Counted from the first letter of the stretch, positions 1,576 to 53,263 are shown. The stretch is 64,000 nt of DNA from Minisyncoccota bacterium (GCA_028718635.1 JAQULK010000001.1:607834-671833), one strand, 5' to 3'. Notes: generated by a model from the letters alone, not told the origin. A program made the numbers and translations.

Positions 1576-2562
1576 TTATTCTTTTAAATTCAAACCAAAT
1601 TTATTTAAAACTTTTTTAATTTCGGTAATGCCTTTTTCTCCTATTCCCTCAATCTCAAGCAGGTCGTCTCTCTTTTTTCGAGCTAGGCCTCCCAAGGTTC
1701 GAATATTTGCGGAAGTAAGCGCATTTAATGTTCTAGTAGAGAGATCTAGGCTGTCCGTACGAGTTTTTAGGACATCGACAAAATCAGCCCCTTTTTTGTC
1801 TTCATCGTCATCTTTCTTATCTTTCCCGACCTTTGTCGGGATCCCGACTACGGTCGGGACTTCATCTAGAGGTTCCTTGAAATCAATAATGGCTTTCAGT
1901 TGATTTATCATAATTTCGATAGAGCGAGAAAGAGCTTCTCGAGCAGAGAGAGTGCCATCCGTCTCAATTGAAATTCTTAGACGATTGTGGTTTGTTTTAT
2001 CACCGACGCGCATATTTTCAACTTCATAAGAAACTCTGCGAATGGGAGAGAAGATCGCATCAACGGCAATGGTGCCAACGTCCAATTTTTCTTTTTGAAA
2101 GGCTTCTTTGGCGATAAAGCCCAAGCCTTTTTCTATTTTCATCTCTACGTTCAAATTTATTTTACCAGTAACTTCGGCTATGTGAAGTTCAGGATTTAAA
2201 ATTTCTACTTGGCCTCCGGTTTTTATGTCTCCTGCTAAAACATCCTTAGGGCCTTTTATGGAAAGTGTGACTATCTGAGGCTCGTCGGAAATCATTTTGA
2301 AACGGACTTTCTTTAAGTTTAAAATCATTACGATAACGTCTTCCTTGATTCCATCCATTGTTTGAAATTCATGGCTTACTCCATCTATCTTGATGGAAGT
2401 GATGCTGGCGCCTGGAAGAGAAGAAAGAATTATCCTTCTAAGACTGTTCCCTAGCGTATGGCCATATCCGGGAGACAAACCATCTATTTCAAATATTCCT
2501 TTATTGCCTTCCTCTAAAACAACGCGAGGTTTTGAAGGCATAATTATTTTATATTCAGGCAT
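1576..2562 (-). CDS. rpoA: DNA-directed RNA polymerase alpha subunit. The interdomain linker contains an in-frame palindromic insertion.
   Basis: GHTLGNSLRRILLSSLPG N-terminal-domain signature plus C-terminal-domain helix-hairpin-helix. Linker PTVVGIPTKVG is encoded by the palindrome at 1825-1860. Confidence 0.9.
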   Translation of the reverse strand: MPEYKIIMPSKPRVVLEEGNKGIFEIDGLSPGYGHTLGNSLRRIILSSLPGASITSIKIDGVSHEFQTMDGIKEDVIVMILNLKKVRFKMISDEPQIVTLSIKGPKDVLAGDIKTGGQVEILNPELHIAEVTGKINLNVEMKIEKGLGFIAKEAFQKEKLDVGTIAVDAIFSPIRRVSYEVENMRVGDKTNHNRLRISIETDGTLSAREALSRSIEIMINQLKAIIDFKEPLDEVPTVVGIPTKVGKDKKDDDEDKKGADFVDVLKTRTDSLDLSTRTLNALTSANIRTLGGLARKKRDDLLEIEGIGEKGITEIKKVLNKFGLNLKE

Positions 2563-2633
2563 AATACTTTTTATAATTAATTTGTAATAATATTTATTTG
2601 CCTCACTCCTTTCAATAGGAAGGGCATACTAAT

Positions 2634-3236
2634 TTAACGACTGTAAAATTCAAGAACGGCATTAATATTAAGAAACGTTTCAATATTTTTCGGTTTGGCT
2701 AAAATACGCCCTTCCATATTATTTAAATCAAAACTGACCCAAGTCGGCGCCGTATAATCCTTTAATTTTTCTGCGAGATTGCTGAAAATTTTCTTGCCTT
2801 TGCTTCCTTCGCGAATTTTTATCACATCTCCCATCTTTACCTCGAAAGAAGGAACAGTCACCCGGTGATTATTTACAACAAAGTGTCCGTGAGAAACCAT
2901 TTGTCTGGCTGCACGTCGAGAGGCTGCAAGACCCATTCGATAAACCACATTATCTAGACGAGATTCCAGTCTTTCGTAAAGTTTGTCTGCGGTTCCGGCG
3001 CCTTTAACGCTGGAAACTTTTTTAACATAATTGGAAAACTGGCGTTCTGATATGCCATATGAAAATCGTATCTTTTGCTTCTCGATAAGCTGAACACCGT
3101 ACTCAGTAGGAGCTTTCGGACGTTTTCCTCCAGAAAAGGATTTTGAAGATGCAGCTGAAAATTTAGAAGTCTGACATTTATCATAAACGCCTGGACCAAG
3201 TCTTCTACATATTTTAAATTTGGGTTTTGTTATCAT
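2634..3236 (-). CDS. rpsD: 30S ribosomal protein S4. The start is taken at the internal ATG at 3236; the track ORF extends to 3299 and would overlap rpsK.
   Basis: KFKICRRLG ... RLDNVVYRMGLAASRRAARQMVSHGHFVVNNHRVTVPSF S4 motifs. Confidence 0.85.
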   Translation of the reverse strand: MITKPKFKICRRLGPGVYDKCQTSKFSAASSKSFSGGKRPKAPTEYGVQLIEKQKIRFSYGISERQFSNYVKKVSSVKGAGTADKLYERLESRLDNVVYRMGLAASRRAARQMVSHGHFVVNNHRVTVPSFEVKMGDVIKIREGSKGKKIFSNLAEKLKDYTAPTWVSFDLNNMEGRILAKPKNIETFLNINAVLEFYSR

Positions 3237-3243
3237 AAATTTT

Positions 3244-3720
3244 TTATACTCTTCTAGGTTTCTTAGCTTTTGGTCCATTATGAGGAACTGGTGTTGCATC
3301 TAATATAGAAGTAATTTCTATACCATGAGCCATAAAAGCTCGCACAGCAGGTTCCCTCCCGGACCCTACTCCTAAAATAACAGCGTCAGCATCTTTTACG
3401 CCCAAGGCTTCTGCCTTGCCGCCGACAATATCTCCCACCTTGGAAGCCGCAAACGGGGTTCCTTTCTTAGCACCCCTAAAACCTAAACTGCCGGCACTTG
3501 ACCAAAATAATGTATTGCCTAATTTGTCCGAAAAAAGAACTTTGGTATTATTAAATGTGGCTTCAACATGCAGCACACCAGAACTAATTTTCTTTTTGGC
3601 TGTTTTTCCTGCCTGTCCGGTAGGCAGGGATGAAACTTTTTTTGTTTCTTCTGCTGCAGTTTCTTCTTTATTTATTTCTGTTGCTATTTTATCTTTGGCC
3701 ATTTGTTTTTTAATTATCAA
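3244..3720 (-). CDS. rpsK: 30S ribosomal protein S11, with an N-terminal extension that carries an in-frame palindromic insertion
   Basis: FNNTKVLFSD..GN..FWSSAGSLGF.G..K.TPFAA ... VPHNG S11 motifs. The LPTGQAGK segment is encoded by the palindrome at 3608-3628. Confidence 0.85.
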   Translation of the reverse strand: MIIKKQMAKDKIATEINKEETAAEETKKVSSLPTGQAGKTAKKKISSGVLHVEATFNNTKVLFSDKLGNTLFWSSAGSLGFRGAKKGTPFAASKVGDIVGGKAEALGVKDADAVILGVGSGREPAVRAFMAHGIEITSILDATPVPHNGPKAKKPRRV

Positions 3721-3773
3721 TTACGAATTACGAATTTCAAATTATTAATTCGTAATTTTTAATTCCTCATTGA

Positions 3774-4154: not shown

Positions 4155-4416
4155 ATAAATTATTGTTTTTGTTTATGTTTAGGGTTGGAGCAAATTATCT
4201 TCAAATGCCTGGCTCTTTTAACCATTTTACAATTGGCACAAATTTTTTTTACTGCTGATTTTATTTTCATAAAAATTTCGAAAATTCAAATAATAAACAA
4301 GAAAAACAAGGAGAATACCCTTATTTTTCAATACTATAACTTTTTAAAACCTACAATTAATATAATACACTATTCTTTAAAAAAACACAACCTGTCTGTC
4401 GGCAGGCAGGCTCCTT

Positions 4417-4662
4417 TTACAATCTTTTAATTATTCTACCTTTTCCGCCATAAGGATCCAGCACCATCTCGACGGAATCTCCAATCAAAACTTTAATTCT
4501 GTGCATCCGCATTTTTCCTCCCAAATATGCTAAAATTTCTTTCTCCTCATCATTTACTCTTACTCTAAATAAAGTAGAGGGCAAAGCCTCAGTGACGATT
4601 CCTCGCGCTGTTTGTAATTTTTCCTGCCTGCCGGCAGGCAGGTCTTTTCGGAAGTCACTCAT
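4417..4662 (-). CDS. infA: Translation initiation factor IF-1, with an N-terminal extension that carries an in-frame palindromic insertion
   Basis: GIVTEALPSTLFRVRVNDEEKEILAYLGGKMRMHRIKVLIGDSVEMVLDPYGGKGRII is the IF-1 S1 fold. The LPAGRQ segment is encoded by the palindrome at 4623-4642. Confidence 0.85.
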   Translation of the reverse strand: MSDFRKDLPAGRQEKLQTARGIVTEALPSTLFRVRVNDEEKEILAYLGGKMRMHRIKVLIGDSVEMVLDPYGGKGRIIKRL

Positions 4663-11076: not shown

Positions 11077-12292
11077 CTACTCCACCACCCAAGCAAACAT
11101 TACCATCATAAATGACACAAGATTGACCAGACGCAACTAAAACAGGCTTCTCAAAAATCACTTGTGCAGAAGCCTTACTTCCGCAAATTATTTTGCAAGA
11201 TAAAAATTCCCCATGATAACGAATTTGCGCAGTATAGGTTTTATTTTGTTCTGGAATCTTAGAAATCCAATTGATACTACTCAAAACAAGAGAAAAACTA
11301 TTTGAAAAAGAGGCTACGGAGCGCGACGGCGCGAGTCTTGAGGAATTTTTCAGCAGAAAAATATCCGGACTCTTTTTTAGATAGTTTTTGTCTTGTGATA
11401 CATATAAAATATTTTTCTTTATATCTTTGTCCACCACATAATAGGCTCCATCTGTCGGTGTCTTTTTTGTGATAGTAAAACCATGCCTCTCTCCTAAGGT
11501 ATAAAAAACTTCACCGTCGTGAAAGCCGATCTCTTTTCCATTTTCATTCCCCGCTTCCTGCGGGGCAAGCAACACTTTCCCCTTTTTTTCTTTTATATAA
11601 TGTTTTAAGAATTCTTTTAAATCCACTGCTCCCAGAAAACAAATGCCTTGACTATCTTTTTTTTCTGCAATAGAAAGCTTGAATTTTTTAGCAAGTTTTC
11701 TAACTTCAGTTTTTTTGAGATCTCCAATGGGAAATAAAATCTTCTTTAACTGCTCTTGCCTGAGTGTCCACAAAAAATAACTTTGATCTTTTGCAGGATC
11801 ATTACCTTTCGCAAGCTGAAAAGATGTTCTTTCTTCGGCATTCGCAACCAAAGCTCGGTCAGCCATGTTCAAGATAGAGTGCGAGCCGTGAGAAAGAAGC
11901 ATCTTTTCAGCTTTTGCGTAATGACCAGTAGCCACAAAATCTGCCCCCATTGAAAGAGCCTTTTTAAGGAAAGCTCCAAATTTTACTTCTTTATTACACA
12001 TCACATCCGGATTCGGTGTCCGTCCGAGCTTATATTCTCGAATCATATAATCAGCCACTTCTTTTTTATAAACATCTTCAAAATCAAAAGTAAGAAAAGG
12101 AATATCCAAAGCTGCTGCCACACGCATTGCATCCATACGTTCTTGCTCTTCATTGCAAGCCAAAAAATCCGGATGCCATGTTTTAATAAATACTCCCACA
12201 ACTTCAAAGCCTTGCTTTTTTAGCAAAGCTGCCGAAACAGCGCTATCTACGCCACCCGAAAGTCCCACAAAAACTATTTTTTTCTTTTTCAT
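11069..12292 (-). CDS. mnmA: tRNA 2-thiouridine synthase MnmA, with a repeat-derived in-frame insertion in its C-terminal domain
   Basis: SGGVDSAVSAALL PP-loop motif with the MnmA layout. The segment SSRLAPSRSVAS is encoded by a copy of the 75-bp repeat core at 11300-11350. Confidence 0.8.
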   Translation of the reverse strand: MKKKKIVFVGLSGGVDSAVSAALLKKQGFEVVGVFIKTWHPDFLACNEEQERMDAMRVAAALDIPFLTFDFEDVYKKEVADYMIREYKLGRTPNPDVMCNKEVKFGAFLKKALSMGADFVATGHYAKAEKMLLSHGSHSILNMADRALVANAEERTSFQLAKGNDPAKDQSYFLWTLRQEQLKKILFPIGDLKKTEVRKLAKKFKLSIAEKKDSQGICFLGAVDLKEFLKHYIKEKKGKVLLAPQEAGNENGKEIGFHDGEVFYTLGERHGFTITKKTPTDGAYYVVDKDIKKNILYVSQDKNYLKKSPDIFLLKNSSRLAPSRSVASFSNSFSLVLSSINWISKIPEQNKTYTAQIRYHGEFLSCKIICGSKASAQVIFEKPVLVASGQSCVIYDGNVCLGGGVVV

Positions 12293-15051: not shown

Positions 15052-15079
15052 CCCAGACAGCGCCTTAGGCGCTGTCTGG
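15052..15079. repeat. REP-like palindromic hairpin, copy 1
   Basis: CCCAGACAGCGCC TTAG GCGCTGTCTGG. The stop codon of the Y1 transposase gene lies in the loop. Confidence 0.6.
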
Positions 15080-15745
15080 TAAATCTTCTTCTTCAAGTAG
15101 AGAAGTTTTTCCTCTCTCCTTTCTAACTATTGAAACAATTTCGTCACAATGTTTTTTAAAATTTCTACTCCCATTAAAAATTTCTAATATCCTTTTTCCT
15201 TCCTCTTTTGAAACAATTTTAAAATTATTATTCTCGTATTCGTAATCACTAGCAATCGAAAGAGTTACTTTATTTTTTGGAATATTGTGAATTTGATAAT
15301 TTTTATTTACATAGCCAATGATTTTGTTAAAATAATTTTCATTACTAATGATTTGCGATTTAAAGGTTCCTTGAAAAAGTGACCCTGTGCGAGAATTTTT
15401 AATATTAAAGTAGGAAGTATATCCCGCTTGCAATTTTTGCATAAATTTAGCTATACCTCCATCCACTAACTGTTTTAAAACAAAATGAAAATGATTCGGA
15501 TTTAAACAATAAGTAGCAAAAGAAACCAATGGCTCTTTGGATACCTTAGACAACGCCTTAGGCACGGTCTTATCTTCATTTTTTCTTGCATTTCTTATGC
15601 TACCGATAATTTCTGTTTGATTAAATTCAGAAATACTTTCAATAAAGCGATCTAAGTCTTTCCTATTAAGAAAAATATCCCTTTTATCTACTCCACGATT
15701 GTAAATATGGTGGTACTCGCCCGTAACGATTGGTTGTTTTCTCAT
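15065..15745 (-). CDS. Y1 HUH transposase-like protein (IS200/RAYT-like TnpA homolog)
   Basis: YHHIYNRGVDKRDIF aligns to the IS200 TnpA start. NPNHFHFVL is the HxH motif. A C-terminal Y-containing helix is present. REP-like hairpins lie at both ends. Confidence 0.55.
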   Translation of the reverse strand: MRKQPIVTGEYHHIYNRGVDKRDIFLNRKDLDRFIESISEFNQTEIIGSIRNARKNEDKTVPKALSKVSKEPLVSFATYCLNPNHFHFVLKQLVDGGIAKFMQKLQAGYTSYFNIKNSRTGSLFQGTFKSQIISNENYFNKIIGYVNKNYQIHNIPKNKVTLSIASDYEYENNNFKIVSKEEGKRILEIFNGSRNFKKHCDEIVSIVRKERGKTSLLEEEDLPDSA

Positions 15746-15760: not shown

Positions 15761-15785
15761 CAGACAGCGCCTAAGGCGCTGTCTG
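15761..15785. repeat. REP-like palindromic hairpin, copy 2
   Basis: CAGACAGCGCC TAAG GCGCTGTCTG. Confidence 0.6.
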
Positions 15786-16716: not shown

Positions 16717-16743
16717 CCAAACAGCGTCTTAGGCGCTGTCTGG
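16717..16743. repeat. REP-like palindromic hairpin, copy 3 (two mismatches)
   Basis: CCAAACAGCGTC TTAG GCGCTGTCTGG. Confidence 0.5.
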
Positions 16744-17872: not shown

Positions 17873-19708
17873 TTATCTTTTTGCCCTAGCTCGATCAATT
17901 TCCGTCAAAAATCTCTTGCGAAGTCTGACGGATTTGGGCGTAATTTCCAAGTATTCATCTCTATTCATCACCTCCAGACCTCGTTCGATACTTAAAATAA
18001 AAGTAGGATTTAAGGTTATCGCTTCATCAGTACCAGAAGCTCGCATATTGGTAAGCTGTTTTCCTTTTGTAGGATTGACAGACATGTCGTCTCCTTTAAG
18101 AACGTTACCAATCACCATCCCTTCATAAACATCCGTACCATGACCTATATACAGTATACCACGTTCTTGTAAGTTTGCAAGAGAAAAGGCTACCGCTTTG
18201 CCAGAAACCATCGAAATCATAGAACCGTATTCCCTCTTTTTTATCTCTCCTGCATATTCTCTAAATCCTGTAACTCTTGAACTCATTATCCCTTCCCCTT
18301 TAGTGTCTATGATAAACTCGCTGCGATATCCCAAAAGTCCGCGTGTCGGTATGTCAAAAATAATTCTAGCAATACCTTCTTTTTCTACCATGTCTTTCAT
18401 GATGCCTCGTCTTTTGCCAATTTTCTCTATAACGCTTCCGGAAAATTCCATCGGAACATCGATCACTAGCTCTTCATAAGGTTCTGTCTTCACGCCATTC
18501 TTTTCTTTTATAATAACTTCTGGTTGAGAAACTTGCATTTCAAAACCTTCTCTTCTCATATTTTCAAGCAGTATTGCGATGTGCAATTCTCCTCTGCCAT
18601 ATACTTTAAAAAATGAGGGGCCTGACTTATTTTCGTTTTGGTTCTGGAGAACCTGCCTGCCGGCAGGCAGGAAATCAACCTTGAGCCCGACGTTGATCTC
18701 TAATTCTTTTTCTAATCTTTCTTTGATTTGTCTTGAAGTGACAAACTTGCCTTCAAGACCTGCAAAAGGAGAATCATTTACTAAAAAATTAAGAGAAAGA
18801 GTCGGCTCATCGATAGCGATGTGCGGCAATATCTCTACGCTCTCGTCCTCGCATATGGTTTCTCCGATATAAATATCCGGAATTCCAGCCAGAAGAACGA
18901 TATCACCCGAAGTTGCAGAATCTATTTCTTTTCTATTTATCCCCTCGAAAACAAAAAGTTTTGTAATTTTCCCCCGGCGGATTTTCTCCTCGCCGTCAAT
19001 ATTGCCTTTTATAAAAACCTGGCTGCCTGATATCATCTTCCCGGAATAAATCCTAGCCACTGCCATTCTTCCTAAAAAATTATCATAACCCAAATTAAAA
19101 ACTTGCGCAGACATTTTGCCATCTTTGTTTACAGAAGCTGGAGGAACTTTTTCTAGTATTAGATCTAATAAAGGAGAAAGATCTGCTGATTCATCGCCTA
19201 AATGCCTGAAAGCTTTCCCTTGCCTGCCAATTGCATATATCGTTTCAAAATTGGCTTGCTCTTCATTTGCACCCAATTCAAAAAACAACTCCAAAATTTC
19301 TTCATGCACTTTATGCGGATCAGCTGCCGGCTTGTCTATTTTATTTATAACCACTATGGGCTTGAGGCCTAATTCCAAAGATTTTTTTAAAACGAATCTA
19401 GTTTGCGGCATCGGTCCTTCTGCTGCGTCTACCAACAGCAACACGGAATCTATGGCACGCAAAACCCGCTCCACTTCTGATCCGAAATCCGCGTGGCCAG
19501 GAGTATCTACGATGTTTATCTTTGTGTCTTTATAATAGATGGAAGTATTTTTTGAATAAATAGTAATACCACGCTCTTTTTCTAGATCGTTTGAATCCAT
19601 TGATACTCCTTCATCTTGAAGACCACCATTTTGCTTCATCAATGCATCAGTCAAGGTCGTCTTGCCATGATCCACGTGAGCTATTATTGCTATATTTCTA
19701 ATTTCCAT
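17873..19708 (-). CDS. typA: Translational GTPase TypA/BipA, with an in-frame palindromic insertion
   Basis: IAIIAHVDHGKTTLTDALM G-domain with the BipA layout. FLPAGRQ is encoded by the palindrome at 18652-18671. Confidence 0.85.
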   Translation of the reverse strand: MEIRNIAIIAHVDHGKTTLTDALMKQNGGLQDEGVSMDSNDLEKERGITIYSKNTSIYYKDTKINIVDTPGHADFGSEVERVLRAIDSVLLLVDAAEGPMPQTRFVLKKSLELGLKPIVVINKIDKPAADPHKVHEEILELFFELGANEEQANFETIYAIGRQGKAFRHLGDESADLSPLLDLILEKVPPASVNKDGKMSAQVFNLGYDNFLGRMAVARIYSGKMISGSQVFIKGNIDGEEKIRRGKITKLFVFEGINRKEIDSATSGDIVLLAGIPDIYIGETICEDESVEILPHIAIDEPTLSLNFLVNDSPFAGLEGKFVTSRQIKERLEKELEINVGLKVDFLPAGRQVLQNQNENKSGPSFFKVYGRGELHIAILLENMRREGFEMQVSQPEVIIKEKNGVKTEPYEELVIDVPMEFSGSVIEKIGKRRGIMKDMVEKEGIARIIFDIPTRGLLGYRSEFIIDTKGEGIMSSRVTGFREYAGEIKKREYGSMISMVSGKAVAFSLANLQERGILYIGHGTDVYEGMVIGNVLKGDDMSVNPTKGKQLTNMRASGTDEAITLNPTFILSIERGLEVMNRDEYLEITPKSVRLRKRFLTEIDRARAKR

Positions 19709-25735: not shown

Positions 25736-27022
25736 CTAATGATACCATTTTTTTAGTTTAGTCAAAATTTTTACTAAAACTTTTATAGTATAATCAATAT
25801 CCTCTTTTGTTGTATCTCTGCCTAAAGAAAAACGCACTCCACCAGTATCATCATACCAAGGGTTCCCCTTGGCAAGTTTTACCAAGGGGAACCCTTGGTA
25901 TTGTGCTTGACGAATTGCTTTGATTACATAAGATCCTCCGCTTTCCCCGCTCTTGCACGCGCTCTTGGCCGACGTCATTATCCCCTTTGCAGAAAGTTCA
26001 ATCACTAATAGATCGCTCGGAATTTTTGGAAATGTTACATTTACATTATTCGGCAATCTATTTTTCAAATCTCCATTAATTATATAACCTTGCGGACGTT
26101 GGACGTCCGATTTTCGGACGTCCAACGTCCGCAACCTCTCCATAAAATAATTACGAAGTTTTTCCAAGCGTTTGCTTTCTTGTTCTTTAATATTTTGCGC
26201 TGATTTTAATGCACAGGAAAATTTTAAAATCTCCGGCAAATTTTCCGTGCCTGGACGAATTCCTCCTTCTTGATCTCCCCCGCCGAACACCTTCGCAAGC
26301 TTAATCGTTTTCTTTTTATAAAGAACTCCGACTCTGCCAGATTCCTGTATCTTTGAGCCGGAAAGTGAAAGCAAATCTATACCCAATCTCTCCACGTTTA
26401 GATCTAGATAATTTACCGCTTGTACTGCATCCGTATGGAAGAGCGGGAAAATACACCTCTCCCCAACCCTCTCCTTATTAAGGAGAGGGTGCTGAAAGCG
26501 GGTGAGGTTCTTCCAATGCTTAATTGCCTTTGCAATTTCTTTTATTGGCTGTATTGTCCCTATTTCATTATTCGCATACATTACCGAAACAAGTACAGTA
26601 TTTTTTTTTATTTCTTTTTTTATTTTTTTTGGATCTACTATTCCATTTGCTTCGACTGGTACGATCGTTATTTCTGCCAGCTTTCTTTCTGCTAACAACT
26701 TGCAAGTCTCAAGAACCGATGGATGCTCTATGTTAGTTGTTACAATATGCGGCATACGGAGGCAATTCCTCCGTACGGAGAAATTGCCTCCGTATGCTTT
26801 TTCAAACCAAGCCCACACTACTCCCTGTATTGCAAGATTGTTGCTTTCTGTACCACCACTTGTAAAAATTATTTCTTCTGGTCTAGCGCCCAAAATATCA
26901 GAAACTTCTTTCCGTGAATTTTGAAGTTTAATTTTTGCTTCTACCCCAGCCCTATGTACAGAACTAGAGTTTGCCGACGCGCTGGCGGCATAATCTAGAT
27001 ATATTTCATTTGATTTAGGCAT
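25736..27022 (-). CDS. Cysteine desulfurase (class V aminotransferase, NifS/IscS-like) carrying four in-frame palindromic insertions
   Basis: IYLDYAASA...FTSGGTESNNLAI and the PLP-lysine region SGSKI match cysteine desulfurases. The protein is about 40 aa longer than usual; the extra segments YQGFPLVKLAKGNPW, LRTLDVRKSDVQRPQ, RFQHPLLNKERVGER and AYGGNFSVRRNCLRMPH each sit on a palindrome. Confidence 0.75.
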   Translation of the reverse strand: MPKSNEIYLDYAASASANSSSVHRAGVEAKIKLQNSRKEVSDILGARPEEIIFTSGGTESNNLAIQGVVWAWFEKAYGGNFSVRRNCLRMPHIVTTNIEHPSVLETCKLLAERKLAEITIVPVEANGIVDPKKIKKEIKKNTVLVSVMYANNEIGTIQPIKEIAKAIKHWKNLTRFQHPLLNKERVGERCIFPLFHTDAVQAVNYLDLNVERLGIDLLSLSGSKIQESGRVGVLYKKKTIKLAKVFGGGDQEGGIRPGTENLPEILKFSCALKSAQNIKEQESKRLEKLRNYFMERLRTLDVRKSDVQRPQGYIINGDLKNRLPNNVNVTFPKIPSDLLVIELSAKGIMTSAKSACKSGESGGSYVIKAIRQAQYQGFPLVKLAKGNPWYDDTGGVRFSLGRDTTKEDIDYTIKVLVKILTKLKKWYH

Positions 27023-27587: not shown

Positions 27588-29105
27588 ATGGAAAAAGATA
27601 AACAAAAAGAAAATATAGTTAATCGTCCGCCTGTCGTGGTAGTCATGGGTCATATCGATCATGGCAAATCTACTCTGCTTGATTATATAAGGAAAACAAC
27701 TGTTACTGAAAAAGAAGCTGGGGGAATAACTCAGAGAATTTCCGCCTATGAAGTCACGCACCAAAACAGCAAGATAACTTTCATAGACACTCCAGGACAT
27801 GAAGCTTTTTCAAAAATGCGCGAACGTGGCGCAAAGATTGCCGACATTGCCATTTTGGTCGTTTCGGCGGAGGACGGCGTAAAACCGCAGACTATCGAAG
27901 CATGGAAAACTATTGTCGAGTCCGACACTCCATGCATTGTCGCTATAAACAAGATAGACAAAGTGGGCGCTGATATAGAAAAAACAAAAAAAGAATTAGC
28001 CGAACATGAAATCTATTTGGAGAGTTATGGAGGAAAAATTCCTTCCGTAGATATTTCTGCCAAAGTCGGTACTGGAGTGGACGAACTACTTTCACTTATT
28101 TTAATTTTAGCAGAAATGGAAAACTTTACTGGAGACAGCTCTCTGGATGCATCTGGATATGTAATTGAAGTGAACTTAGATTCCAAACGCGGAATAATGG
28201 CAACCTTGATAATAAAAAATGGAACTATCAAAAATGGAATGACTGTGGTAATCAGAGACGCTATGTGTTCCACGCGCATAATAGAGAATTTTCTTGGAAA
28301 GGCAATAAGCAAAGCTACTTTTTCCTCCCCTATTCGTATTGTAGGTTTTGATAAAATGCCGAGAGTGGGCGCGCAATTTAAAACTTTCCAAAAAAAGGGA
28401 GACGCCGTGGCGTATATAGAAAAGAGACCCCCTCGCCCTTCGGGCACTCCCCCTTCTCAAGGGGGAGAAAACGTGGTTAATAAAAAAATAATTCCAATAA
28501 TATTAAAAGCTGACGGCTCTGGATCTATTGAGGCGATTGAAAAAGAAATTTCTAAAATAAACTCTGATACCAGCACCACAATAAATAAAAATGCAGAATT
28601 CAGGATTGTCGGAAAAGGGATCGGGCCCATTTCTGAATCCGATATAAAAAATGCGTCATCTGGCGACACGATCGTCATAGGATTCAATGTAAAAGCAGAC
28701 AAAAGCGCAATTGATACAGCCCAAAAAAGAGACATAACGATTTCCTTCTTTAATATTATCTACCAAATGACAAAGTGGTTGGAGATCCAAATGGAAGAAA
28801 GAAGACCAAAAATTGAAACCATAGAAACAACTGGCCGAGCAAAGATTATTCGAGCCTTCAGTCGCACTAAGGAACGCCAAATTTTAGGAGGAAAAGTTAC
28901 GGAAGGGCAAATAGGACTAAACAGTGCTATTAGAATAATGCGACGAGGGTTTGAGATTGGCCGGGCAAAGATTGTTAATCTTGAAAAAAATAAAGTAAAA
29001 ACGAGTGAAATTTCCGAAGGTTCTGAGTTTGGAATGATGATTGAGTCAAAAATAGAAGTTGTCGCCGGAGATATATTAGAATCTTTTTCAATAACTCAAA
29101 AATAA
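27588..29105 (+). CDS. infB: Translation initiation factor IF-2 (short form)
   Basis: RPPVVVVMGHIDHGKSTLLDYIRKT...GGITQRISAYEV G-domain with the IF-2 C-terminal domains. A small GC-hairpin insertion lies at 28432-28467 (PRPSGTPPSQGGE). Confidence 0.85.
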   Translation: MEKDKQKENIVNRPPVVVVMGHIDHGKSTLLDYIRKTTVTEKEAGGITQRISAYEVTHQNSKITFIDTPGHEAFSKMRERGAKIADIAILVVSAEDGVKPQTIEAWKTIVESDTPCIVAINKIDKVGADIEKTKKELAEHEIYLESYGGKIPSVDISAKVGTGVDELLSLILILAEMENFTGDSSLDASGYVIEVNLDSKRGIMATLIIKNGTIKNGMTVVIRDAMCSTRIIENFLGKAISKATFSSPIRIVGFDKMPRVGAQFKTFQKKGDAVAYIEKRPPRPSGTPPSQGGENVVNKKIIPIILKADGSGSIEAIEKEISKINSDTSTTINKNAEFRIVGKGIGPISESDIKNASSGDTIVIGFNVKADKSAIDTAQKRDITISFFNIIYQMTKWLEIQMEERRPKIETIETTGRAKIIRAFSRTKERQILGGKVTEGQIGLNSAIRIMRRGFEIGRAKIVNLEKNKVKTSEISEGSEFGMMIESKIEVVAGDILESFSITQK

Positions 29106-29156
29106 TACACCTCACCCTAGCCCTCTCCTTATCAAGGAGAGGAAAAAATAAAAATT

Positions 29157-41793: not shown

Positions 41794-41928
41794 TCTCTTA
41801 TTTTACACTATTAACTTCTACCCAGCCAACGCACAAAGGGCGAATTTCGTTTACGAAATTCGCCCTTTATTAATTTCTATTGTATTTTCCCCTCTCCTTA
41901 ATTAAGGAGAGGGCTAGGATGAGGTGAA

Positions 41929-42395: not shown

Positions 42396-42779
42396 TTATT
42401 GATTTAGTGTGGGTAAAATAACATTAACATCATTGCTGCCAGTAAGACCAAAAGTATTGGTTAAAATATTTACAAGACCCCACAAAGCTACGATAACCGC
42501 AAAACCGATAATGCCGTAAATCACTCTATCTCTACCTTTTTTCTTTGCTTCTTCGTCACTTCCGATCATATAAGAAACAACTCCCCATACAAACCAAACT
42601 ACAGCTAAGGCGATCAAAACTGGAACAACAGCGTTAAGAAGTTGTCCTATTTTACACAACACTGAACCTATGTCTGTAATTGTTCCTGCATTACAATTAC
42701 CACCAAAAGTCGCCGCAAATGCAGCAACAGGCGCTAAACTTGAAACAAAACCTGTCAATACGATTAATTTCTTTTTCAT
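42396..42779 (-). CDS. TrbC/VirB2-like pilin-fold small membrane protein, paralog 2
   Basis: Signal peptide, a cysteine pair, then LNAVVPVLIALAVVWFVWGVVSYMIGSDEEAKKKGRDRVIYGIIGFAVIVALWGLVNIL. Confidence 0.45.
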   Translation of the reverse strand: MKKKLIVLTGFVSSLAPVAAFAATFGGNCNAGTITDIGSVLCKIGQLLNAVVPVLIALAVVWFVWGVVSYMIGSDEEAKKKGRDRVIYGIIGFAVIVALWGLVNILTNTFGLTGSNDVNVILPTLNQ

Positions 42780-42895
42780 CCCGTTAGAAGCAGGTCGCGA
42801 TCTTAATTAATTTTAAAATCTATAAAATCAGACCCACTAAATTTATACTTATAATAATTTCCCGACTATAAACCGTGACCGCGGCTTCTAACGGG
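42780..42895. mobile_element. Start-codon-associated palindromic MITE-like element, copy 4
   Basis: CCCGTTAGAAGCAGGTCGCGATC...GTGACCGCGGCTTCTAACGGG. ATGAA direct repeats. Confidence 0.6.
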
Positions 42896-42943
42896 ATTCA
42901 TAACCCCAATAATTATACCTTCTCTAAAAAATCAAAGCAAATT

Positions 42944-43744
42944 CTAATGTGGAGGAGTGACCTGTGGAAGAACTGAAGTGCCAACACCAAAGGTAGTGCC
43001 AAGTATCCCCACCAACCCCCAAACAGACAACATCACTGCTAAAGCAATAATACCCCAGATCATGAATTGCTTGCCTTGCGCTCTTTTTGCTTCTTCGTCA
43101 GCATTAAGTATAAAAAACTGCACTACCCCCCAGACAAACATAACGGTAGCCACGGCAAAAATCAAAGGAATTACGGCGCTATTGATAATGCCAGTAATAT
43201 AGGTTAATACATCTTGAAATTTTGGATTACTAGTAAGAGTGGAAGTAGAGCCAGTACCACCACCTACTGAAGACAAAGATGGCGGAGTAGTACCACCAAG
43301 ACCAAAAGTCGTAGTAATAATATTCACCAACCCCCACAAACCAATGATGACCGCAAAACCAATGACTCCATAAATTATTCTATCTTTTCCTTTTTTCTTC
43401 GCTTCTTCCCCATCAGCGATTACATACTGCACTACTCCCCAGACAAAATAGACCACCCCAAGAGCCACTAAAACCGGAACAATAGAATTGAGAATTTCCT
43501 TAAATTGACATATTATTTTCCCTATACCATTCAAAGAATCACACGTACTAGAAATTGGAATACCACTACAAGTTCCATCTGGAAGCATTCCCGAACCATC
43601 ACTGCATGTACCTACAAATCTGCTATCAAGAGCAAAAGTCATCATTGGAAACAAAACTAATAAAGAAAATATAAGACTAAACTTTTTTATTTTTTGCATA
43701 ATTCGTAATTCGTAATTGATAATTCGTAATTGCTTATAAAGCAA
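42944..43744 (-). CDS. Tandem-duplicated TrbC/VirB2-like protein (two helix-loop-helix modules), paralog 3
   Basis: Two repeats of the ADGEEAKKKGKDRIIYGVIG / NADEEAKRAQGKQFMIWGIIA loop, each flanked by hydrophobic helices. The N-terminal part is cysteine-rich. Confidence 0.45.
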   Translation of the reverse strand: MLYKQLRIINYELRIMQKIKKFSLIFSLLVLFPMMTFALDSRFVGTCSDGSGMLPDGTCSGIPISSTCDSLNGIGKIICQFKEILNSIVPVLVALGVVYFVWGVVQYVIADGEEAKKKGKDRIIYGVIGFAVIIGLWGLVNIITTTFGLGGTTPPSLSSVGGGTGSTSTLTSNPKFQDVLTYITGIINSAVIPLIFAVATVMFVWGVVQFFILNADEEAKRAQGKQFMIWGIIALAVMLSVWGLVGILGTTFGVGTSVLPQVTPPH

Positions 43745-44171
43745 GTACTGTCGCTGATATCATTTTAGCGATAGCCCAAGCTCCTAATAATATCGCTGCA
43801 CCAATCAAAGTGTAAAGAAGCGCATCTTTGGCTTTGGTCAATTCAGTTGGCTTGCCTTGAGCTTTTACAAAAAGAAAGCCACAGTAAATGATAGCAAGCG
43901 CGACGATAGGCATACCGATTTTAATCACACCCTGCAATATGGCTTGAATTAAATCTGATATTAAGGGAAATTTACCACCTAAGGGATCAACAATTTTACC
44001 GCCACCCCCAGAAGCGGTACCATCAGTATCTCCAGCAAAAGAAATAATTGGAATAATTAACACATAAACTGCTAAAATTATCTTATACCAACCTCTCTTA
44101 ATAAAATTCTTTTTCATCTTGTTTTCATTATAACTCATATTAGAGAGGATTGAAACCAATCCAACTGCCAC
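43734..44171 (-). CDS. TrbC/VirB2-like small membrane protein, paralog 4. The real start is probably the internal ATG near 44117.
   Basis: Signal peptide followed by a two-helix hydrophobic core with a KAQGKPTELTKAKD loop. Confidence 0.35.
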   Translation of the reverse strand: MAVGLVSILSNMSYNENKMKKNFIKRGWYKIILAVYVLIIPIISFAGDTDGTASGGGGKIVDPLGGKFPLISDLIQAILQGVIKIGMPIVALAIIYCGFLFVKAQGKPTELTKAKDALLYTLIGAAILLGAWAIAKMISATVLAL

Positions 44172-44520
44172 TGTAGCCTAGAATATATAGTACTGTTTTA
44201 ATAATCAAAAAAGCTGCCACCGCGATAATCAGCCCGAGAACTGTATTAGTAAAAACAGAATTTGCTCTAGTCCTCGCTCCCGATGACCCACCCGAAGTGA
44301 CAAAGAGAAACCCCGCATAAACAAACATAATAGCCGAAATAGGTATAACCATATCAAAAAGAATAAAATGAATTACTCTATTTATAAGATCCATAAATTC
44401 TTTAAAACCACAATTCGTATCGCATTGTACCAAAGGCGTACTTCCTGCTAAAGAGACAACGGGAATAATCAGAATCAAAAAAACAAGAAGGTCTATGGTA
44501 AATTTTGTTTTGCTTTGCAT
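44140..44520 (-). CDS. TrbC/VirB2-like small membrane protein, paralog 5
   Basis: Signal peptide, CDTNC cysteines, two hydrophobic helices separated by a GGSSGARTRA loop. Confidence 0.35.
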   Translation of the reverse strand: MQSKTKFTIDLLVFLILIIPVVSLAGSTPLVQCDTNCGFKEFMDLINRVIHFILFDMVIPISAIMFVYAGFLFVTSGGSSGARTRANSVFTNTVLGLIIAVAAFLIIKTVLYILGYSGSWIGFNPL

Positions 44521-46474: not shown

Positions 46475-48958
46475 TTATATACAAGCAAGTGATGCAATAC
46501 CATCACCGGCACGAAGGCGCATTATTGTCACTCCTTGAGTTTGACGGCCCAGAGAAGAAATATCTTTTAAAGCTGTCCTGATGACTTGTCCTTTCTTAGA
46601 CATGGCAATTAATTCCAGTTCTTCTCCTGATAAAACCTTTGCCACGATGAGTTTGCCGGTTTTGGAAGTTACTTTGGCTGTTTTCACGCCTGAACCCCCG
46701 CGCTTTTGAACTTTGTATTCTTTTAGAGAAGTCTTTTTACCAAAACCATTTGCGCTCATCGTGAGGAATGCTCCCTGCCTGCCGGCAGGCAGGCCTTTTT
46801 CCATTTCCTTCTTCACGACATCCACACCGATAACCTCATCGCTCTTCCTTAGTCTGATACCACTCACTCCTCCGGCCGTCCTGCCCATCTCGCGCACGTC
46901 GGACTCTTTAAATCTGATCGATTGGCCATTCGCTGTGGCGATCATCACTTCATCCCCTTTTTCTACAGAAAGAGCAGAGACAAGCTGATCATCCTTATCA
47001 AGGCGAATAGCAATAATCCCGCTTCTGCGCACGTCTTTGAAGCTCTCCGAGGACATTTTTTTGGCTGTGCCATCTTTTGTTACCAACATAAGCGAGGAAG
47101 AAGCCTTGGCTAAATCTTTCGGCATTGCCAAGATGGAAGTCACTTTTTCATCAGAAGAAAGAGAAAGAAAATTCATAATGGATTTTCCTTTTGTCGCTCT
47201 CCTGCCCTCGGGAATATCATACATTTTCATTTGATAAACTTTGCCGAGGTTCGTAAAGAAAAGCAGATTGCTGTGGGTAGAGCCGGAAACAAGCTTCGTA
47301 ACAAAATCTTCTTCTTTGGTTTCAAGATCAATTACGCCCACACCTCCCCTTTTTTGGGCATGATATTCAGACGGATCTGTGCATTTTACATAACCGCCGG
47401 CTGTGAGTACGAGCATCGTTTCTTTTTCTGGCACTAGATCTTCGTCAGAAATTTCTTTCACTCCGCCTTTCACTATTCTCGTCCTTCTTTCGTCCGCGTA
47501 TTTTTCGCGGATTTCTTTCAATTCACTGGCAATCACTTTTAATATTTTCTTTGAACTAGCAAGCAAATCTTTCATCGCCTCGATAAACTTTTGTTTTTCT
47601 GCAAGCTCATCTTCTACGGCTTTTCTCTCCAGTCCGGCCAATTTAGCCAATTTCATTTCCAAAATAGCAGTCGCTTGCAAATCTGAAAACTTAAATTCTT
47701 TCATTAAATTCAATTTTGCAAGTTGAGAATTCTTGGATCCGCGGATAATAGTAATCACGCGATCTATCTTGTCTAATGCTTTTTTCAATCCAAGTAAAAT
47801 GTGTTCGCGCTCTTGAGCTTTTTTCAAATCATATGCGGTTCTCCTTTTAACAATCTCTTTTCTATGCTCTATAAATAAGGCTAAAATGGATTTGAGAGAT
47901 AAAGTTTGCGGCACGCCATCCACCAACGCAACCATATTAAAATTAAAATTTGATTCAAGCTGGGTATTTTTATAAATATAATTTAAAACTTTTTCCGGAT
48001 GAGCGCTCGATTTTAAATCGATCACCACTCGGATATCTTTGGTAGATTCATCTCGAAGTCCTTTTATACCTTCAAGTTTTTTCTCTTGAACTAATTCGGC
48101 AATGCTGATTATTAAATTAGCTTTATTTACTCTGAAAGGTAGAGAGGTGATAATAATAGAAAAATTCCCATCTTTTTGTTCTACAATCTCTGCTTCACCT
48201 CTACACACTACTCCGCCTCGCCCTGATCCATATGCATGAAGCATGTCTTTGTATCCATAAGCGATACCGCCAGTAGGAAAATCCGGTCCTTTGACAAATT
48301 GCATCAGATCTTCGGTAGTTGCCTCACTATTTTCAATTAAATAATTTGTAGCATCAAGAATTTCCGCCAAGTTGTGCGAAGGAATATTTGTCGCCATGCC
48401 GACAGCGATACCGAGCGTGCCGTTTAGAAGCAAGGCTGGAACAGCAGAAGGCAAGACTATCGGTTCTTTACGGGTCTGGTCATAGTTTGGACGAAAATCA
48501 ACTGTTTCTTTTTCCAAATCTCTCAATAACTCATTGGAGATCTTCATCATTTTTGCTTCCGTATAACGCATAGCTGCAGCATTATCTCCGTCGATTGAAC
48601 CAAAGTTCCCTTGTCCCCAAATCAAAGGATAGCGATAGGAAAACTCTTGAGCCATTCCAACCATGGTGTCATAAACAGCCGTATCACCATGTGGATGATA
48701 TTTTCCGAGCACATCTCCGACTATCGCCGCGGACTTTCGAAAACGCGCCGAAGAAGTAAGACCCATTTCATTCATGCCAAATAATATTCTGCGATGCACT
48801 GGTTTCAATCCGTCTCGAACATCCGGCAAAGCGCGCGAAGTGATGACTGTCATCGCGTAGGCGATATACGACTCTTTCATCTCTGCCACGATATCAACCG
48901 GCAAAATGCTATCTGCTCTTATTTCTTCGTTTAATTCTGGTGTAGACTTTTTTGCCAT
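46475..48958 (-). CDS. gyrA: DNA gyrase subunit A, with an in-frame palindromic insertion
   Basis: [26 protein letters not shown], the AMRYTEAKM active-site tyrosine region, C-terminal beta-pinwheel repeats. GLPAGRQ is encoded by the palindrome at 46774-46793. Confidence 0.85.
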
Positions 48959-51056: not shown

Positions 51057-51066
51057 AAAAGGATAA

Positions 51067-51100
51067 AAAACTGCCCCGACTTAAGTCGGGGCAGTTTTTT
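51067..51100. terminator. Bidirectional rho-independent terminator
   Basis: AAAACTGCCCCGAC TTAA GTCGGGGCAGTTTT followed by TTT. Confidence 0.7.
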
Positions 51101-51740
51101 ATGTAGTTGAATTTTGGGTGACCATCGCTAGATCTTCATCTCCGATATCTTTCATTATAGATATAACCTGATCAGCGTATTTAGGAATTATAGAAGGTGG
51201 ATTATAAGCATGAAGGATTCCTTTAGTAGTTTTATCGTCATAGTGTTTGGCAGTCTTTGGGTTATTTCCACCTAAATTTTTAGCAACGGTTTCAATAGCT
51301 CCATCAACTGATTTGAAACCAATCTTGCATGACCCCCAGCCAAAAGGATTATTTTCTACTTTTTTACACTTGAATTTTCCTCCAGTAGATTCTCGCACCG
51401 CGATAGACGGCAACAAACGCCAGTCGAGGTCGTTCTTTTCCGCCTCTTCTACCATTTTCATACCAGTTCCTTCAAGTGGCATATCGTGCTCGGCAAAATA
51501 TGCATCAATAGCATCAGCCTTTTGCTGTCGTGCTAAGATCTTATCATCCACTTTTGGGTCTTCCTTAAGATCAATAACCTGATTAAAAGCTAGAGTTCCT
51601 TTGGATTCAATATTAACTTTTTTGACCAACACGTTTTGAGAAGTCTCAATATTATGAATGCCAGATATAGAGATTGGCATAATCACAACAGGCAAAAGCA
51701 CTAAAGACTGTGCAAAACGTATTAGATTGTTTTTTTTCAT
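51099..51740 (-). CDS. Secreted peptidoglycan hydrolase-like protein (GH73 glucosaminidase-like)
   Basis: Signal peptide; IAVRESTGGKF...NNPFGWG resembles the glucosaminidase AALESGWG...NNLFG motifs. Confidence 0.35.
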   Translation of the reverse strand: MKKNNLIRFAQSLVLLPVVIMPISISGIHNIETSQNVLVKKVNIESKGTLAFNQVIDLKEDPKVDDKILARQQKADAIDAYFAEHDMPLEGTGMKMVEEAEKNDLDWRLLPSIAVRESTGGKFKCKKVENNPFGWGSCKIGFKSVDGAIETVAKNLGGNNPKTAKHYDDKTTKGILHAYNPPSIIPKYADQVISIMKDIGDEDLAMVTQNSTT

Positions 51741-51973
51741 ATTATAGCGGTATTTGCTCCGCCAACACCTCTACTGTCTACTTCAGCCAAACTTTGACTT
51801 ACGCGTTTATAATATCATTAGTCTTAGTAAAAGTCAATAGTTATGCAACATTTTTGTCATATGTCAAATCAAAAATACCTTGTAAAATAAGGATATAATG
51901 GAATATACCTATTGACAAAAAGGACTAAAAATAGGATAATTAAGGACTTGTGGACAACTTTTTTGCCCCGACC

Positions 51974-53263
51974 TTAAAGTCGGGGTCCCGATACAAGGTC
52001 GGGAAATACTTTCTCAGCAACTTTATACGCTTCTCCTGCTCCCATTGTCACAAATACGTCATTTTCACCTAATTTCATCCTACTTACCCTCTCTTCTGCT
52101 TCAGTAAAACTGCTAAAAGCGGTTACTTCTCCGCGGTGCGTACGCATTGCTATGGCTAATTTCTCACTAGAAACCTCTTGATCAGGATTTTCACGGGCAA
52201 AATAGATTGGTAAAAGCAAAACGTTGTCAGCATCATCAAAACAAGTCACAAATTCATCAAAAAGGGCTTTGGTTCGGCTATAAAGATGCGGTTGAAAGAG
52301 AACTGTGATTCTTTTCCCTGCCTGTCCGGTAGGCAGGTGCCCTTTTGGATACAGCTCTCGCAAAGCTTCTAGACTTGCCTTTACTTCCGTAGGATGATGG
52401 GCGTAATCGTCATAAATGATTGTTCCTTCTTTTGTTACACCCTTTTTCTCTAACCGTCGCCACGTGCCTGTAAATTCTGAAAGAGACTTTTGTGCTATTT
52501 CTTCTTTGATGCCCAAAAGGTCGGCTACCGCCAGGGCTGCTGCCGCATCCATTCTGTTGTGCTGTCCTGGAACTAAAAGCTTCGGAACTTTGTCTAAATA
52601 TTTACTATAATCTGAAATCACTTTCTCACTCTGTTTTTCAAGTTGTTTAAAGGCGCTTTTAATGTCTTCTAGATCTTTATAATAATCCAAATGATCTGCT
52701 TCAATATTCGTAATCACTAAAATTTTTGGTTTAATGTTTAAAAAAGCTCTTTTATATTCACAAGCTTCCACCACAAAATACTTACTTCTTCCAATGATTA
52801 AATTTGATTTACTTTCTTTTAGTAAAGACCCGACAATTACCGAAGGGTCCAATTTTGCGTCCAGTAATATTTTGCCAATCATTGCTGTAGTGGTGGTCTT
52901 GCCATGAGTACCAGAAACTGCAATGGTGTACTTATTAGAAGTCACGATACCTAATGCCTCTGGATAACTTAATTTTTTAACTCCAGAATTATTTAATTCA
53001 GTAAAAAACTTCGGGTCATATTGAGCAACTGAAAGCGAAAATATAACCAATTCAACATCTTTTGGAATCAATTCCATCGCTTGACCCAAAGTTATTTTAG
53101 CTCCGAGCCTTTGGAGCTCGTCAGTTATTCCACTCATTGAGATGTCTGACCCAAAGACATCTTTCCCTTCCAAAAGCATCATTCGTGCAATAGCCGATAT
53201 GCCGATCCCCCCGATTCCCACAAAAAATACTTTTTTAATTTTTGATAAATCAAATTTTTCCAT
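51974..53263 (-). CDS. murC: UDP-N-acetylmuramate--L-alanine ligase, with an in-frame palindromic insertion
   Basis: VFFVGIGGIGISAIARMM, the Mur ligase ATP site GTHGKTTTTAMI, C-terminal domain. HLPTGQAGK is encoded by the palindrome at 52317-52337. Confidence 0.85.
   Translation of the reverse strand: MEKFDLSKIKKVFFVGIGGIGISAIARMMLLEGKDVFGSDISMSGITDELQRLGAKITLGQAMELIPKDVELVIFSLSVAQYDPKFFTELNNSGVKKLSYPEALGIVTSNKYTIAVSGTHGKTTTTAMIGKILLDAKLDPSVIVGSLLKESKSNLIIGRSKYFVVEACEYKRAFLNIKPKILVITNIEADHLDYYKDLEDIKSAFKQLEKQSEKVISDYSKYLDKVPKLLVPGQHNRMDAAAALAVADLLGIKEEIAQKSLSEFTGTWRRLEKKGVTKEGTIIYDDYAHHPTEVKASLEALRELYPKGHLPTGQAGKRITVLFQPHLYSRTKALFDEFVTCFDDADNVLLLPIYFARENPDQEVSSEKLAIAMRTHRGEVTAFSSFTEAEERVSRMKLGENDVFVTMGAGEAYKVAEKVFPDLVSGPRL

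Follow-up and report, generated by a model that had tools for sequence, protein, structure and literature searches.

The 64,000-nucleotide stretch analysed here (JAQULK010000001.1:607834-671833 of the Minisyncoccota assembly GCA_028718635.1; in the following called the window) contains short, GC-rich palindromes that lie in frame within core genes as well as between genes, and it also encodes a transposase resembling the tyrosine transposases associated with repetitive extragenic palindromic (REP) sequences, the REP-associated tyrosine transposases (RAYTs). The host is a Paceibacterota (Nomurabacteria-like) member of the candidate phyla radiation, a groundwater bacterium with a tiny genome, and homologs of the window's IscS carry the names Paceibacterota or Nomurabacteria. 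Proteins of a 'Candidatus Pacebacteria' metagenome-assembled genome match two proteins of the window at 100% identity. According to NCBIfam, the palindromes are hosted by rpoA, rpsK (encoding uS11), infA, typA, gyrA, murC, infB, and a gene for an IscS/NifS-type cysteine desulfurase. This agrees with the initial annotation of the stretch, in which the hosts were described as core translation, replication, and cell-wall genes, and all palindromes are present at the coordinates that it gave.

The G+C content of the window is 37%. Perfect hairpins with a stem of at least 9 bp occur 29 times, compared to 4.7 ± 1.8 times in dinucleotide shuffles, and for GC-rich perfect hairpins (GC of at least 0.5, same minimum stem) the numbers are 13 observed versus 0.2 in the shuffles. 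When one mismatch is tolerated, 13 GC-rich hairpins are genic, nine are intergenic, and two extend across gene ends; since 86.6% of the window is coding, this corresponds to a density per base that is about 4.5 times higher in intergenic than in coding DNA. An Rfam scan of the window and 16 loci with the palindrome P1 (see below) found no family covering the hairpins, the matches being one group I intron, tRNAs, and a terminal piece of 16S rRNA. CRISPR repeats as identity of the palindromes and restriction-site effects as their explanation were considered and rejected for lack of support.

P1 (CCTGCCTGCCGGCAGGCAGG) is a 20-bp perfect palindrome with three exact copies in the window (starting at 4623, 18652, and 46774) and three variants, while no match was obtained across 100 shuffles. 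The copies are as follows (a strand is given where the feature has one).

3608..3628 (+): 21-bp P1 variant CCTGCCTGTCCGGTAGGCAGG in rpsK, in the N-terminal extension of uS11, read as LPTGQAG
4391..4410: decayed P1 just 3' of infA, with two mismatches, each C>T on the + strand
4623..4642: P1 in infA, peptide (D)LPAGRQ; the insertion is 21 bp long (P1 plus one A)
18652..18671: P1 in typA, a pure 20-bp insertion within a T5 run
46774..46793: P1 in the gyrA C-terminal domain, read as GLPAGRQ; +7 aa insert (P1 plus one G)
52317..52337 (+): 21-bp P1 variant CCTGCCTGTCCGGTAGGCAGG in murC, read as LPTGQAG, at a position where solved MurC structures leave a gap of 9 aa

GTAG occurs inside the 21-bp variant. 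The remaining palindromes comprise other families (P2, P3, and the units found in IscS), the small infB hairpins, and a separate 40-bp palindrome, and the elements range, together with P1, from 20 to 57 bp in length.

1825..1860: P2 doublet in the interdomain linker of rpoA, composed of a pair of CCCGAC..GTCGGG hairpins
25854..25900 (-): IscS insert 4, doublet of the TACCAAGGG..CCCTTGGTA unit; RNA hairpin of -40.3 kcal/mol
26090..26134 (-): IscS insert 3, doublet of the CGGACGTTGGACGTCCG unit; -41 kcal/mol
26454..26510 (-): IscS insert 2, P3-type, encoding LTRFQHPLLNKERVGER
26752..26797 (-): IscS insert 1, doublet of the TACGGAGG..CCTCCGTA unit; -38.5 kcal/mol
28432..28467 (+): pair of small GC hairpins within the linker of infB; encoded peptide PPRPSGTPPSQGGE
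29108..29142: P3 family copy in the infB-rbfA spacer, intergenic
41889..41926: P3 family copy, intergenic
51063..51102: 40-bp perfect palindrome with a CCCGAC core and A/T-run flanks, between convergent genes
51966..52004: P2-like doublet over the murC end, encoding the last ~10 residues (FPDLVSGPRL) and the stop codon
61247..61282: P2 doublet, intergenic
62650..62690: single TACCAAGGGTTCCCCTTGGTA unit, intergenic, lengthened by A/T runs

The peptides assigned previously (LPAGRQ three times, LPTGQAG twice, the rpoA peptide, and the four IscS inserts) all read as stated, the P2 doublet in rpoA encoding VPTVVGIPTKVG, and the additional P1 copy that had been placed 3' of infA is found at 4391 with its two mismatches. 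Likewise, palindromes of IscS recur between genes, namely as a singlet unit at 62660 and as the P3 copies at 29108-29142 and 41889-41926. Two P2-type hairpins had been described as terminators. The palindrome around 51067-51100 looks like a bidirectional terminator, although it shares only the CCCGAC core with P2 and is otherwise a separate 40-bp palindrome; the one at 51966-52004 is not solely a terminator because it supplies the C-terminal codons and stop of murC. What had been overlooked is that the IscS inserts at 25854, 26090, and 26752 are inverted doublets that form single mRNA hairpins of -38 to -41 kcal/mol. In this respect, several inserts resemble REPINs (REP doublets forming hairpins).

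The in-frame palindromes are lineage-specific insertions, as had been proposed, which is evident from gaps in solved structures and from empty sites in the DNA of relatives. Alignment of IscS to the structure 9wep leaves four gaps precisely at the four palindromes, BipA (8ewh) has a gap at the typA P1 site, GyrA (8s7k) is without 11 residues around GLPAGRQ, and MurC (9ir5 and 1gqq) is without nine residues around LPTGQAG, the MurC alignment stopping at residue 419, before the last ten residues that the P2-like element encodes. In an AlphaFold2 model of IscS (62 homologs), the four inserts are located in coil between conserved helices and strands with a predicted local distance difference test score (pLDDT) below 50-60, which supports a location in loops, and the pyridoxal phosphate-binding Lys224 and the catalytic Cys356 are invariant.

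The close relatives comprised 80 metagenomic loci around rpsM, of which L172 and L173 share ~80% DNA identity with the window over 5.7 kb. A three-way alignment shows exactly 21 bp missing from infA in both of them, and the infA insert is also missing in 60+ further relatives. In rpsK, exactly 21 bp are missing in L173 (as in 70+ further relatives), and the insert is present in L172. Around 21 bp are missing from both at the decayed P1 3' of infA. The gyrA site is empty in L261, the closest relative there (GyrA 96% identical), and an unbiased list of indels relative to L261 contains the gyrA P1 as one of only three window-specific insertions of at least 9 bp. The insertions are thereby shown to be recent and polymorphic among relatives, with filled and empty sites in infA, rpsK, and gyrA. 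Two elements are less clear-cut. The rpoA element lies in the linker as described, but its clean insertion cannot be demonstrated because this linker is hypervariable and differs in net length by just +9 bp from the closest relatives. The hairpins in infB are present as well, yet they are not restricted to this genome; their peptide is common to L253 and L254 and missing in L255, and the element is therefore older.

An origin of the palindromes as artefacts of assembly, or as protein sequence inherited from an ancestor, is refuted by these empty sites in close relatives and gaps in solved structures, by the same insertions being recovered from independent metagenomes and assemblers (L172, L189, L259, and L260), and by the presence of P1 in cultured isolates. 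No support for it was found (the infB peptide occurs in several relatives, not in all), and unrelated orthologs do not share the peptide segments. An adapter or linker artefact was rejected, too, as copies are common to independent assemblies and isolates.

The anatomy of the insertions shows how the reading frame is kept. In typA, P1 adds exactly 20 bp and the frame is recovered by +4 nt located ~30 nt downstream, with the consequence that the stretch VLQNQNENKS is read in a frame other than the ancestral one. For infA and gyrA, the inserted piece is P1 plus one base matching its neighbour, and the 21-bp variant keeps the frame on its own. Comparing filled and empty window sites, the target duplication amounts to 0-1 nt without anything regular. 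P1 is open in all three frames, the two unused ones each containing a Cys codon, and at bona fide independent genic sites it reads LPAGRQ in 11 out of 11 cases (p ~ (1/3)^10). These sites are infA, typA, and gyrA of the window, FtsK of a Saccharibacteria member, GatB, RfbB, ScpB, a GT39-like glycosyltransferase, and three proteins from other phyla. Apparent exceptions were rejected since they either precede the true start of the gene or belong to open reading frames (ORFs) that are spurious, and one junction in an HsdS-like gene is ambiguous. A perfect palindrome had been expected to encode the same peptide whatever the orientation of the gene, which holds in other genomes, the P1 hosts of the window all being on one strand; the use of a single frame had been overlooked.

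This exclusive frame argues that the inserts are translated and that selection acts on the peptide, and it speaks against removal at the RNA level. It is hardly credible that the inserts are cut from the RNA as tiny intron-like hairpins and never reach the protein or the mature tRNA, although some tRNA genes do carry P1 (L145 within the variable arm; L015, L037, L085, L099, and L152 within the D-loop region) and net genic insertions in multiples of three would also be compatible with the removal of 21 nt. If the inserts were excised, neither the frame bias nor the avoidance of frames with a Cys codon would be expected, the 20-nt typA copy with its compensating indel downstream is sensible only if it is translated, and Rfam holds no matching family. 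Introns and inteins were rejected as a class for related reasons: 20-57 nt is too short, an Rfam match is missing, and the frame bias favours translation.

The insertion sites are hot spots with a high turnover. IscS homologs range in length from 376 to 456 aa, and their four loops hold many differing peptides across lineages; in L253, three of the four loops are encoded by other perfect palindromes (38, 43, and 50 bp). About 95 of 119 GyrA homologs are without the GLPAGRQ insert. Three or more separate lineages have it while their nearest neighbours do not, and decayed forms (GLSAGA, GLPAVA, GLPAQP, and SLSAQA) are found in other homologs. Fitch parsimony requires 10 changes at this site. In the DNA, the gyrA insert is located at the identical nucleotide in the window, L259, and L260, and the distant relative L189 carries P1 at the same nucleotide of infA as the window, with nearer relatives lacking it; DNA identity between lineages with a common P1 site is ~70-80%. 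The density of P1 is six copies per 64 kb in the window, whereas relatives have three per 514 kb. In 544 kb of relatives, neither the P2 family nor the IscS units were found, P3 alone being common to both.

Further inserts were observed in relatives. The Mur ligase of L261 (window ortholog at 55719-57005) has two in-frame 27-bp palindromic insertions near window positions ~56232 and ~56388 that are missing in the window, one of them P1-like (GCCTGCCCGCCCGGGTTCGGCAGGCGG) and the other related to a window IscS unit (CAGACGTTGGACGTCTG). L257 typA and L253 infB contain further short inserts (for example, PSKDSGRPA, SSCQGESLTSLSRTPLDTQTLR, and IPTPDKSESGHRPQASG), and homologs of infA and gyrA show recurring 'PAR..SAGG' peptides. 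The latter inserts and peptides hint at more palindrome families across the lineage. Moreover, a Paceibacterota GyrA homolog of 1279 aa (P0313) contains intein and homing-endonuclease domains (PF14528 and PF14890), and gyrA is here the target of another type of selfish in-frame insertion.

The initial annotation did not mention that the window also encodes a RAYT-like transposase surrounded by hairpins of its own.

15053..15079: flanking hairpin CCAGACAGCGCCTTAGGCGCTGTCTGG, at the 3' end of the transposase gene
15065..15745 (-): RAYT-like Y1 (IS200-type HUH) transposase of 226 aa, with its stop codon in the loop of the downstream hairpin
15549..15569 (-): decayed flanking hairpin within the RAYT-like ORF, encoding TVPKALS
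15761..15785: inverted copy of the flanking hairpin, 15 bp upstream of the start region of the RAYT-like gene
16717..16743: third, slightly decayed copy of the flanking hairpin, one gene further upstream

The ORF matches the Pfam family PF01797 (Y1_Tnp) with 27.4 bits (cut-off 23) and has a HUH motif (NHFHFV) and a catalytic Tyr within GYVNKNY. It has more than 2600 homologs at 70-84% identity, which carry the JGI label RayT, while a sequence search for solved structures gave no match. The gene is syntenic in L256 and L257. Its flanking hairpin has the form CAGACAGCGCC-TTA-GGCGCTGTCTG, and the inverted hairpins are kept in L256, L257, and L258 with co-varying arms (CAGCGCC/GGCGCTG versus CAGTGCC/GGCACTG); a perfect counterpart of the hairpin within the ORF is located at 1133-1155 of L256. 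Other Y1_Tnp genes were found two genes from IscS in one relative and adjoining gyrA in another. It is established that RAYT genes are flanked by their REPs (see also PMC3733652), and the inverted hairpins bracketing the transposase gene (the feature of a REPtron) match this architecture.

On this basis, we consider it probable, with some reservation, that the palindromes are miniature non-coding repeats of the REP/REPIN kind that behave like Rickettsia palindromic elements (RPEs), that they multiplied in one Paceibacterota genome, and that they were moved in trans as single-stranded hairpins by a RAYT-type Y1/HUH transposase. The unit is a GC-rich hairpin of 20-25 bp, present singly or as an inverted doublet, whose new copies land across the chromosome with a target duplication of 0-1 nt. 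Intergenic copies occupy terminator positions, and the genic copies observed are those that keep the frame (through a length of 21 bp, one extra base, or a nearby compensating indel) and that sit in permissive loops or linkers. The peptide of genic P1 copies (LPAGRQ or LPTGQAG) is tolerable, free of Cys, and turn-forming, and the copies are therefore translated as small surface insertions. Mobilization would be performed by a host-resident, vertically inherited enzyme such as the one encoded at 15065-15745. HUH-type transposition of single strands, as carried out by IS200/IS605 and REP-RAYT systems, generates no target duplication, and the near-absent duplication at the window sites fits such a mechanism.

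The hairpins could instead be mainly selected RNA or DNA signals (such as terminators, mRNA stabilizers, or sites of translational pausing or protein binding), with co-opted regulators, not selfish insertions, as the genic copies. The higher intergenic density, the terminator-like A/T runs at 51063-51102 and 62650-62690, the very stable RNA hairpins, and the conserved and co-varying hairpins around the RAYT-like gene all point in this direction. We nevertheless regard this as improbable since genic copies come and go among close relatives without apparent consequence, the same loops hold differing sequences in different lineages, decayed copies are found, and the exclusive reading frame indicates that the peptide is under selection and not the RNA.

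That P1 also occurs outside this lineage, in many phyla, had been overlooked. With one genome per species, exact P1 was found in at least 120 stretches from many phyla, including, among the matches listed, many candidate phyla radiation groups, Bacteroidota, Omnitrophota, Planctomycetota, metagenome-assembled genomes of Gammaproteobacteria, Bdellovibrionales, and others. Cultured isolates are among the carriers (e.g., the Bacteroidota Winogradskyella echinorum KCTC 22026 and Flagellimonas yonaguniensis). In viral contigs, P1 occurs in 35 stretches and the 21-bp variant in 15, compared to 0 and 1 for two composition-matched control palindromes. A doubled-P1 query against cultured-phage and plasmid collections returned no full copy, only partial chance matches in GC-rich replicons. 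Copies outside the lineage are mostly intergenic, and their flanks contain direct repeats of at least 7 bp in 26 cases versus 4.5 expected, some of them exact adjacent heptamers. In the flanks of 166 P1 copies, the search for a target motif showed only that the palindrome is weakly extended by A...T. When 4231 ORFs from P1 loci were clustered all against all, phage structural, ParB-methylase, and ABC ATPase families were obtained, and no transposase. Nothing was found in the literature searched on the P1 sequence, its peptides, or such elements in the candidate phyla radiation.

In L145 (2239-2330), P1 forms the 20-nt long variable arm of a phage tRNA-Met, and deletion of P1 restores a standard 72-nt tRNA. 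P1 is located at the end of the D-loop in several tRNA-like genes (L015, L037, L085, L099, and L152; L030 also belongs to the tRNA-linked set), and in L152 a group I intron follows ~650 nt downstream. Restoration of a tRNA by deleting P1 was obtained for L145 only, not for the flanks of the other P1-bearing tRNA-like genes, which look like intron-containing or partial tRNA genes. Two viral contigs of ~29 kb (IMGVR_UViG_3300038551_000082 with L160, L158, and L166, and IMGVR_UViG_3300037242_000417 with L141, L148, and L149) contain six copies each of the 21-bp variant or of P1, some nested in larger CCTGCCTG-rich palindromes.

Horizontal spread of P1 across phyla is the simplest reading of its distribution. 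A bolder proposal, which we put forward only tentatively, is that P1 is a pan-bacterial, horizontally spreading hairpin of 20 bp and the smallest known mobile DNA, carrying only its own fold. It would enter chromosomes and phages of many phyla, prefer certain sites (the same gyrA or infA nucleotide in non-sister lineages, and the tRNA D-arm), survive in genes only in the LPAGRQ frame, and be moved by a widely shared host activity (domesticated Y1 transposases or replication and repair) instead of an element-encoded enzyme.

The absence of a common enzyme gene near P1 in 171 loci raises the question whether a dedicated transposase is required at all. Hairpins might spread through copying during replication and repair, for example when templates are switched at stalled forks, when hairpin oligonucleotides that have self-annealed are captured at nicks or breaks, or when other copies act as donors in gene conversion, in which case the RAYT-like gene would be an unrelated domesticated gene. 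Many phyla with identical P1 are unlikely to share one specialized enzyme, recombination could also yield the same gyrA or infA site in non-sister lineages, and the RAYT-flanking hairpin is unlike the dispersed families. On the other hand, template switching builds palindromes from local sequence and not one 20-mer at unrelated loci, the composition-matched control palindromes are essentially absent (0 and 1 versus 35), and lineages with a common site are ~70-80% identical in DNA, a low value for homologous exchange. We therefore judge this route unlikely, if less so than the selected signals discussed above.

Mobilization of REP-like hairpins by a RAYT-type transposase, the reading that we favour, has its closest known counterpart in REP/REPIN-RAYT systems. 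Here as there, short palindromic units (20-40 bp in REP/REPIN-RAYT systems) are repeated far above chance, several families exist per genome, and singlets occur together with inverted doublets; copies are mostly found at gene ends and some in frame inside genes, a single-copy, vertically inherited gene (here for a candidate Y1/HUH transposase) lies between inverted hairpins, and there is no target duplication. Intragenic REPs have been documented in other bacteria (Di Nocera et al. 2013, PMC3733652), and a GTAG (or CGTC) tetranucleotide at one unit end is a feature of REPs (PMC3733652).

A number of observations weigh against this reading. P1 is without the GTAG or CGTC tag of classical REPs (CGTC is contained in another pair of the window, GGGACGCGC..GCGCGTCCC), and REP families are usually lineage-specific, whereas P1 is identical across phyla. 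In the 64-kb window, the RAYT-flanking hairpin is not a dispersed family and recurs only next to its gene (16717) and inside the ORF; it differs from P1, P2, P3, and the IscS units, and no result ties the enzyme to them. The ORF scores 27 bits against the NCBIfam model REP_Tyr_transpos, which is under the cut-off of 80, and the profile of the RAYT-like family has a match near just one of the 171 P1 loci from other genomes. The adjacent direct repeats of 7-8 bp at some P1 copies elsewhere are not predicted by HUH transposition. Finally, the census covers the 64-kb window alone, which is part of a source contig of ~672 kb. Further differences from REP/REPIN-RAYT systems are that about half of the GC-rich hairpins are genic and that the host belongs to the candidate phyla radiation and has a very small genome. 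We do not file P1 as a classical REP because both the tag and a cognate flanking REP are missing, while the RAYT-like transposase with its flanking hairpins makes REP/REPIN-RAYT the closer known kind.

RPEs, to which the palindromes had first been likened, were reportedly described by Ogata et al. in 2000 and 2002 as selfish palindromic repeats lying in frame within genes (summarised in PMC3733652). The comparison stands insofar as the elements are in frame, located in loops, repeated, and also intergenic; other parts are nearer to REP/REPIN-RAYT. In both cases, selfish palindromic repeats are found in functional, often essential genes and translated as surface peptides, with further copies in intergenic DNA and RNA genes of a reduced, AT-rich genome. 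The host genes appear to remain functional, to judge by the kept frame, the invariant Lys224 and Cys356 of IscS, and the loop location in the model. RPE-1, however, is ~100-150 bp long versus 20-57 bp here, the taxon is unrelated, and a candidate transposase is present here; the likeness is one of behaviour. GC-rich hairpins of organelles (yeast mitochondrial GC clusters, sponge and fungal hairpin elements, and byp elements) also multiply in compact, AT-rich genomes, with copies within genes for proteins and RNAs, and to our knowledge no transposase acts on them. As they are organellar, and some are bypassed or are long inverted repeats, this remains an analogy only, for which the coding palindromes of Nematomorpha are a comparison case (PMC6649704). 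Miniature inverted-repeat transposable elements (MITEs) are likewise non-autonomous repeats, but they are characterized by terminal inverted repeats and a fixed target duplication, whereas P1, P2, and the IscS units are without terminal inverted repeats beyond their own hairpin, and the window copies have no regular target duplication (0-1 nt).

Further features were noted in the window. A MITE-like element of ~110 bp occurs at 242-351 and 12288-12397 in inverted copies that are ~90% identical; its terminal inverted repeats are AT-rich and ~22 bp long, and a GGATTTTTTGAAGCTTAAAAAATCC palindrome lies between them. The copy at 242-351 is missing at the orthologous site of L172. A large serine recombinase (29580-31229, -) with Resolvase, Recombinase, and Zn-ribbon domains lies beside tRNA-Cys (29506-29578) and tRNA-Leu (29615-29701), the latter overlapped by the mechanical ORF, and between inverted GGGACGCGC-GAA-GCGCGTCCC hairpins (29738-29758 and 31511-31531). 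Its position adjoining tRNA genes suggests an integrated element. AATTACG heptamer arrays in inverted orientation (3714-3773, upstream of rpsK) are inserted relative to L172 and L173, and such an array also flanks P1 in the unrelated locus L101. An rve-type integrase/transposase with helix-turn-helix domains (38046-39005, -) indicates that an insertion sequence element is present. Five small genes with T4SS pilin/TrbC-VirB2 domains (41929-44520, -) are syntenic in L254 and L261, and the 3' end of a 16S rRNA gene (63840-64000, -) runs past the end of the window.

We regard the palindromes as a variation on a known kind of element, in a phylum for which the literature searched held no such description, and the identity of P1 across phyla is the part that the known kinds do not account for. 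Even the most streamlined bacterial genomes tolerate selfish hairpins in translation, replication, and cell-wall genes, as exemplified by the -40 kcal/mol hairpins in the IscS mRNA and the inserts in IF1, uS11, GyrA, MurC, and BipA. On the one hand, these inserts can mislead alignments, phylogenies, and gene calling in such lineages; on the other hand, they naturally mark which loops of essential proteins are permissive in uncultured members of the candidate phyla radiation. The RAYT-like gene and its hairpins would supply a REP-RAYT system for a phylum without one described in the literature searched, and the cultured P1-bearing Bacteroidota make the cross-phylum identity of a non-coding 20-mer approachable by experiment.

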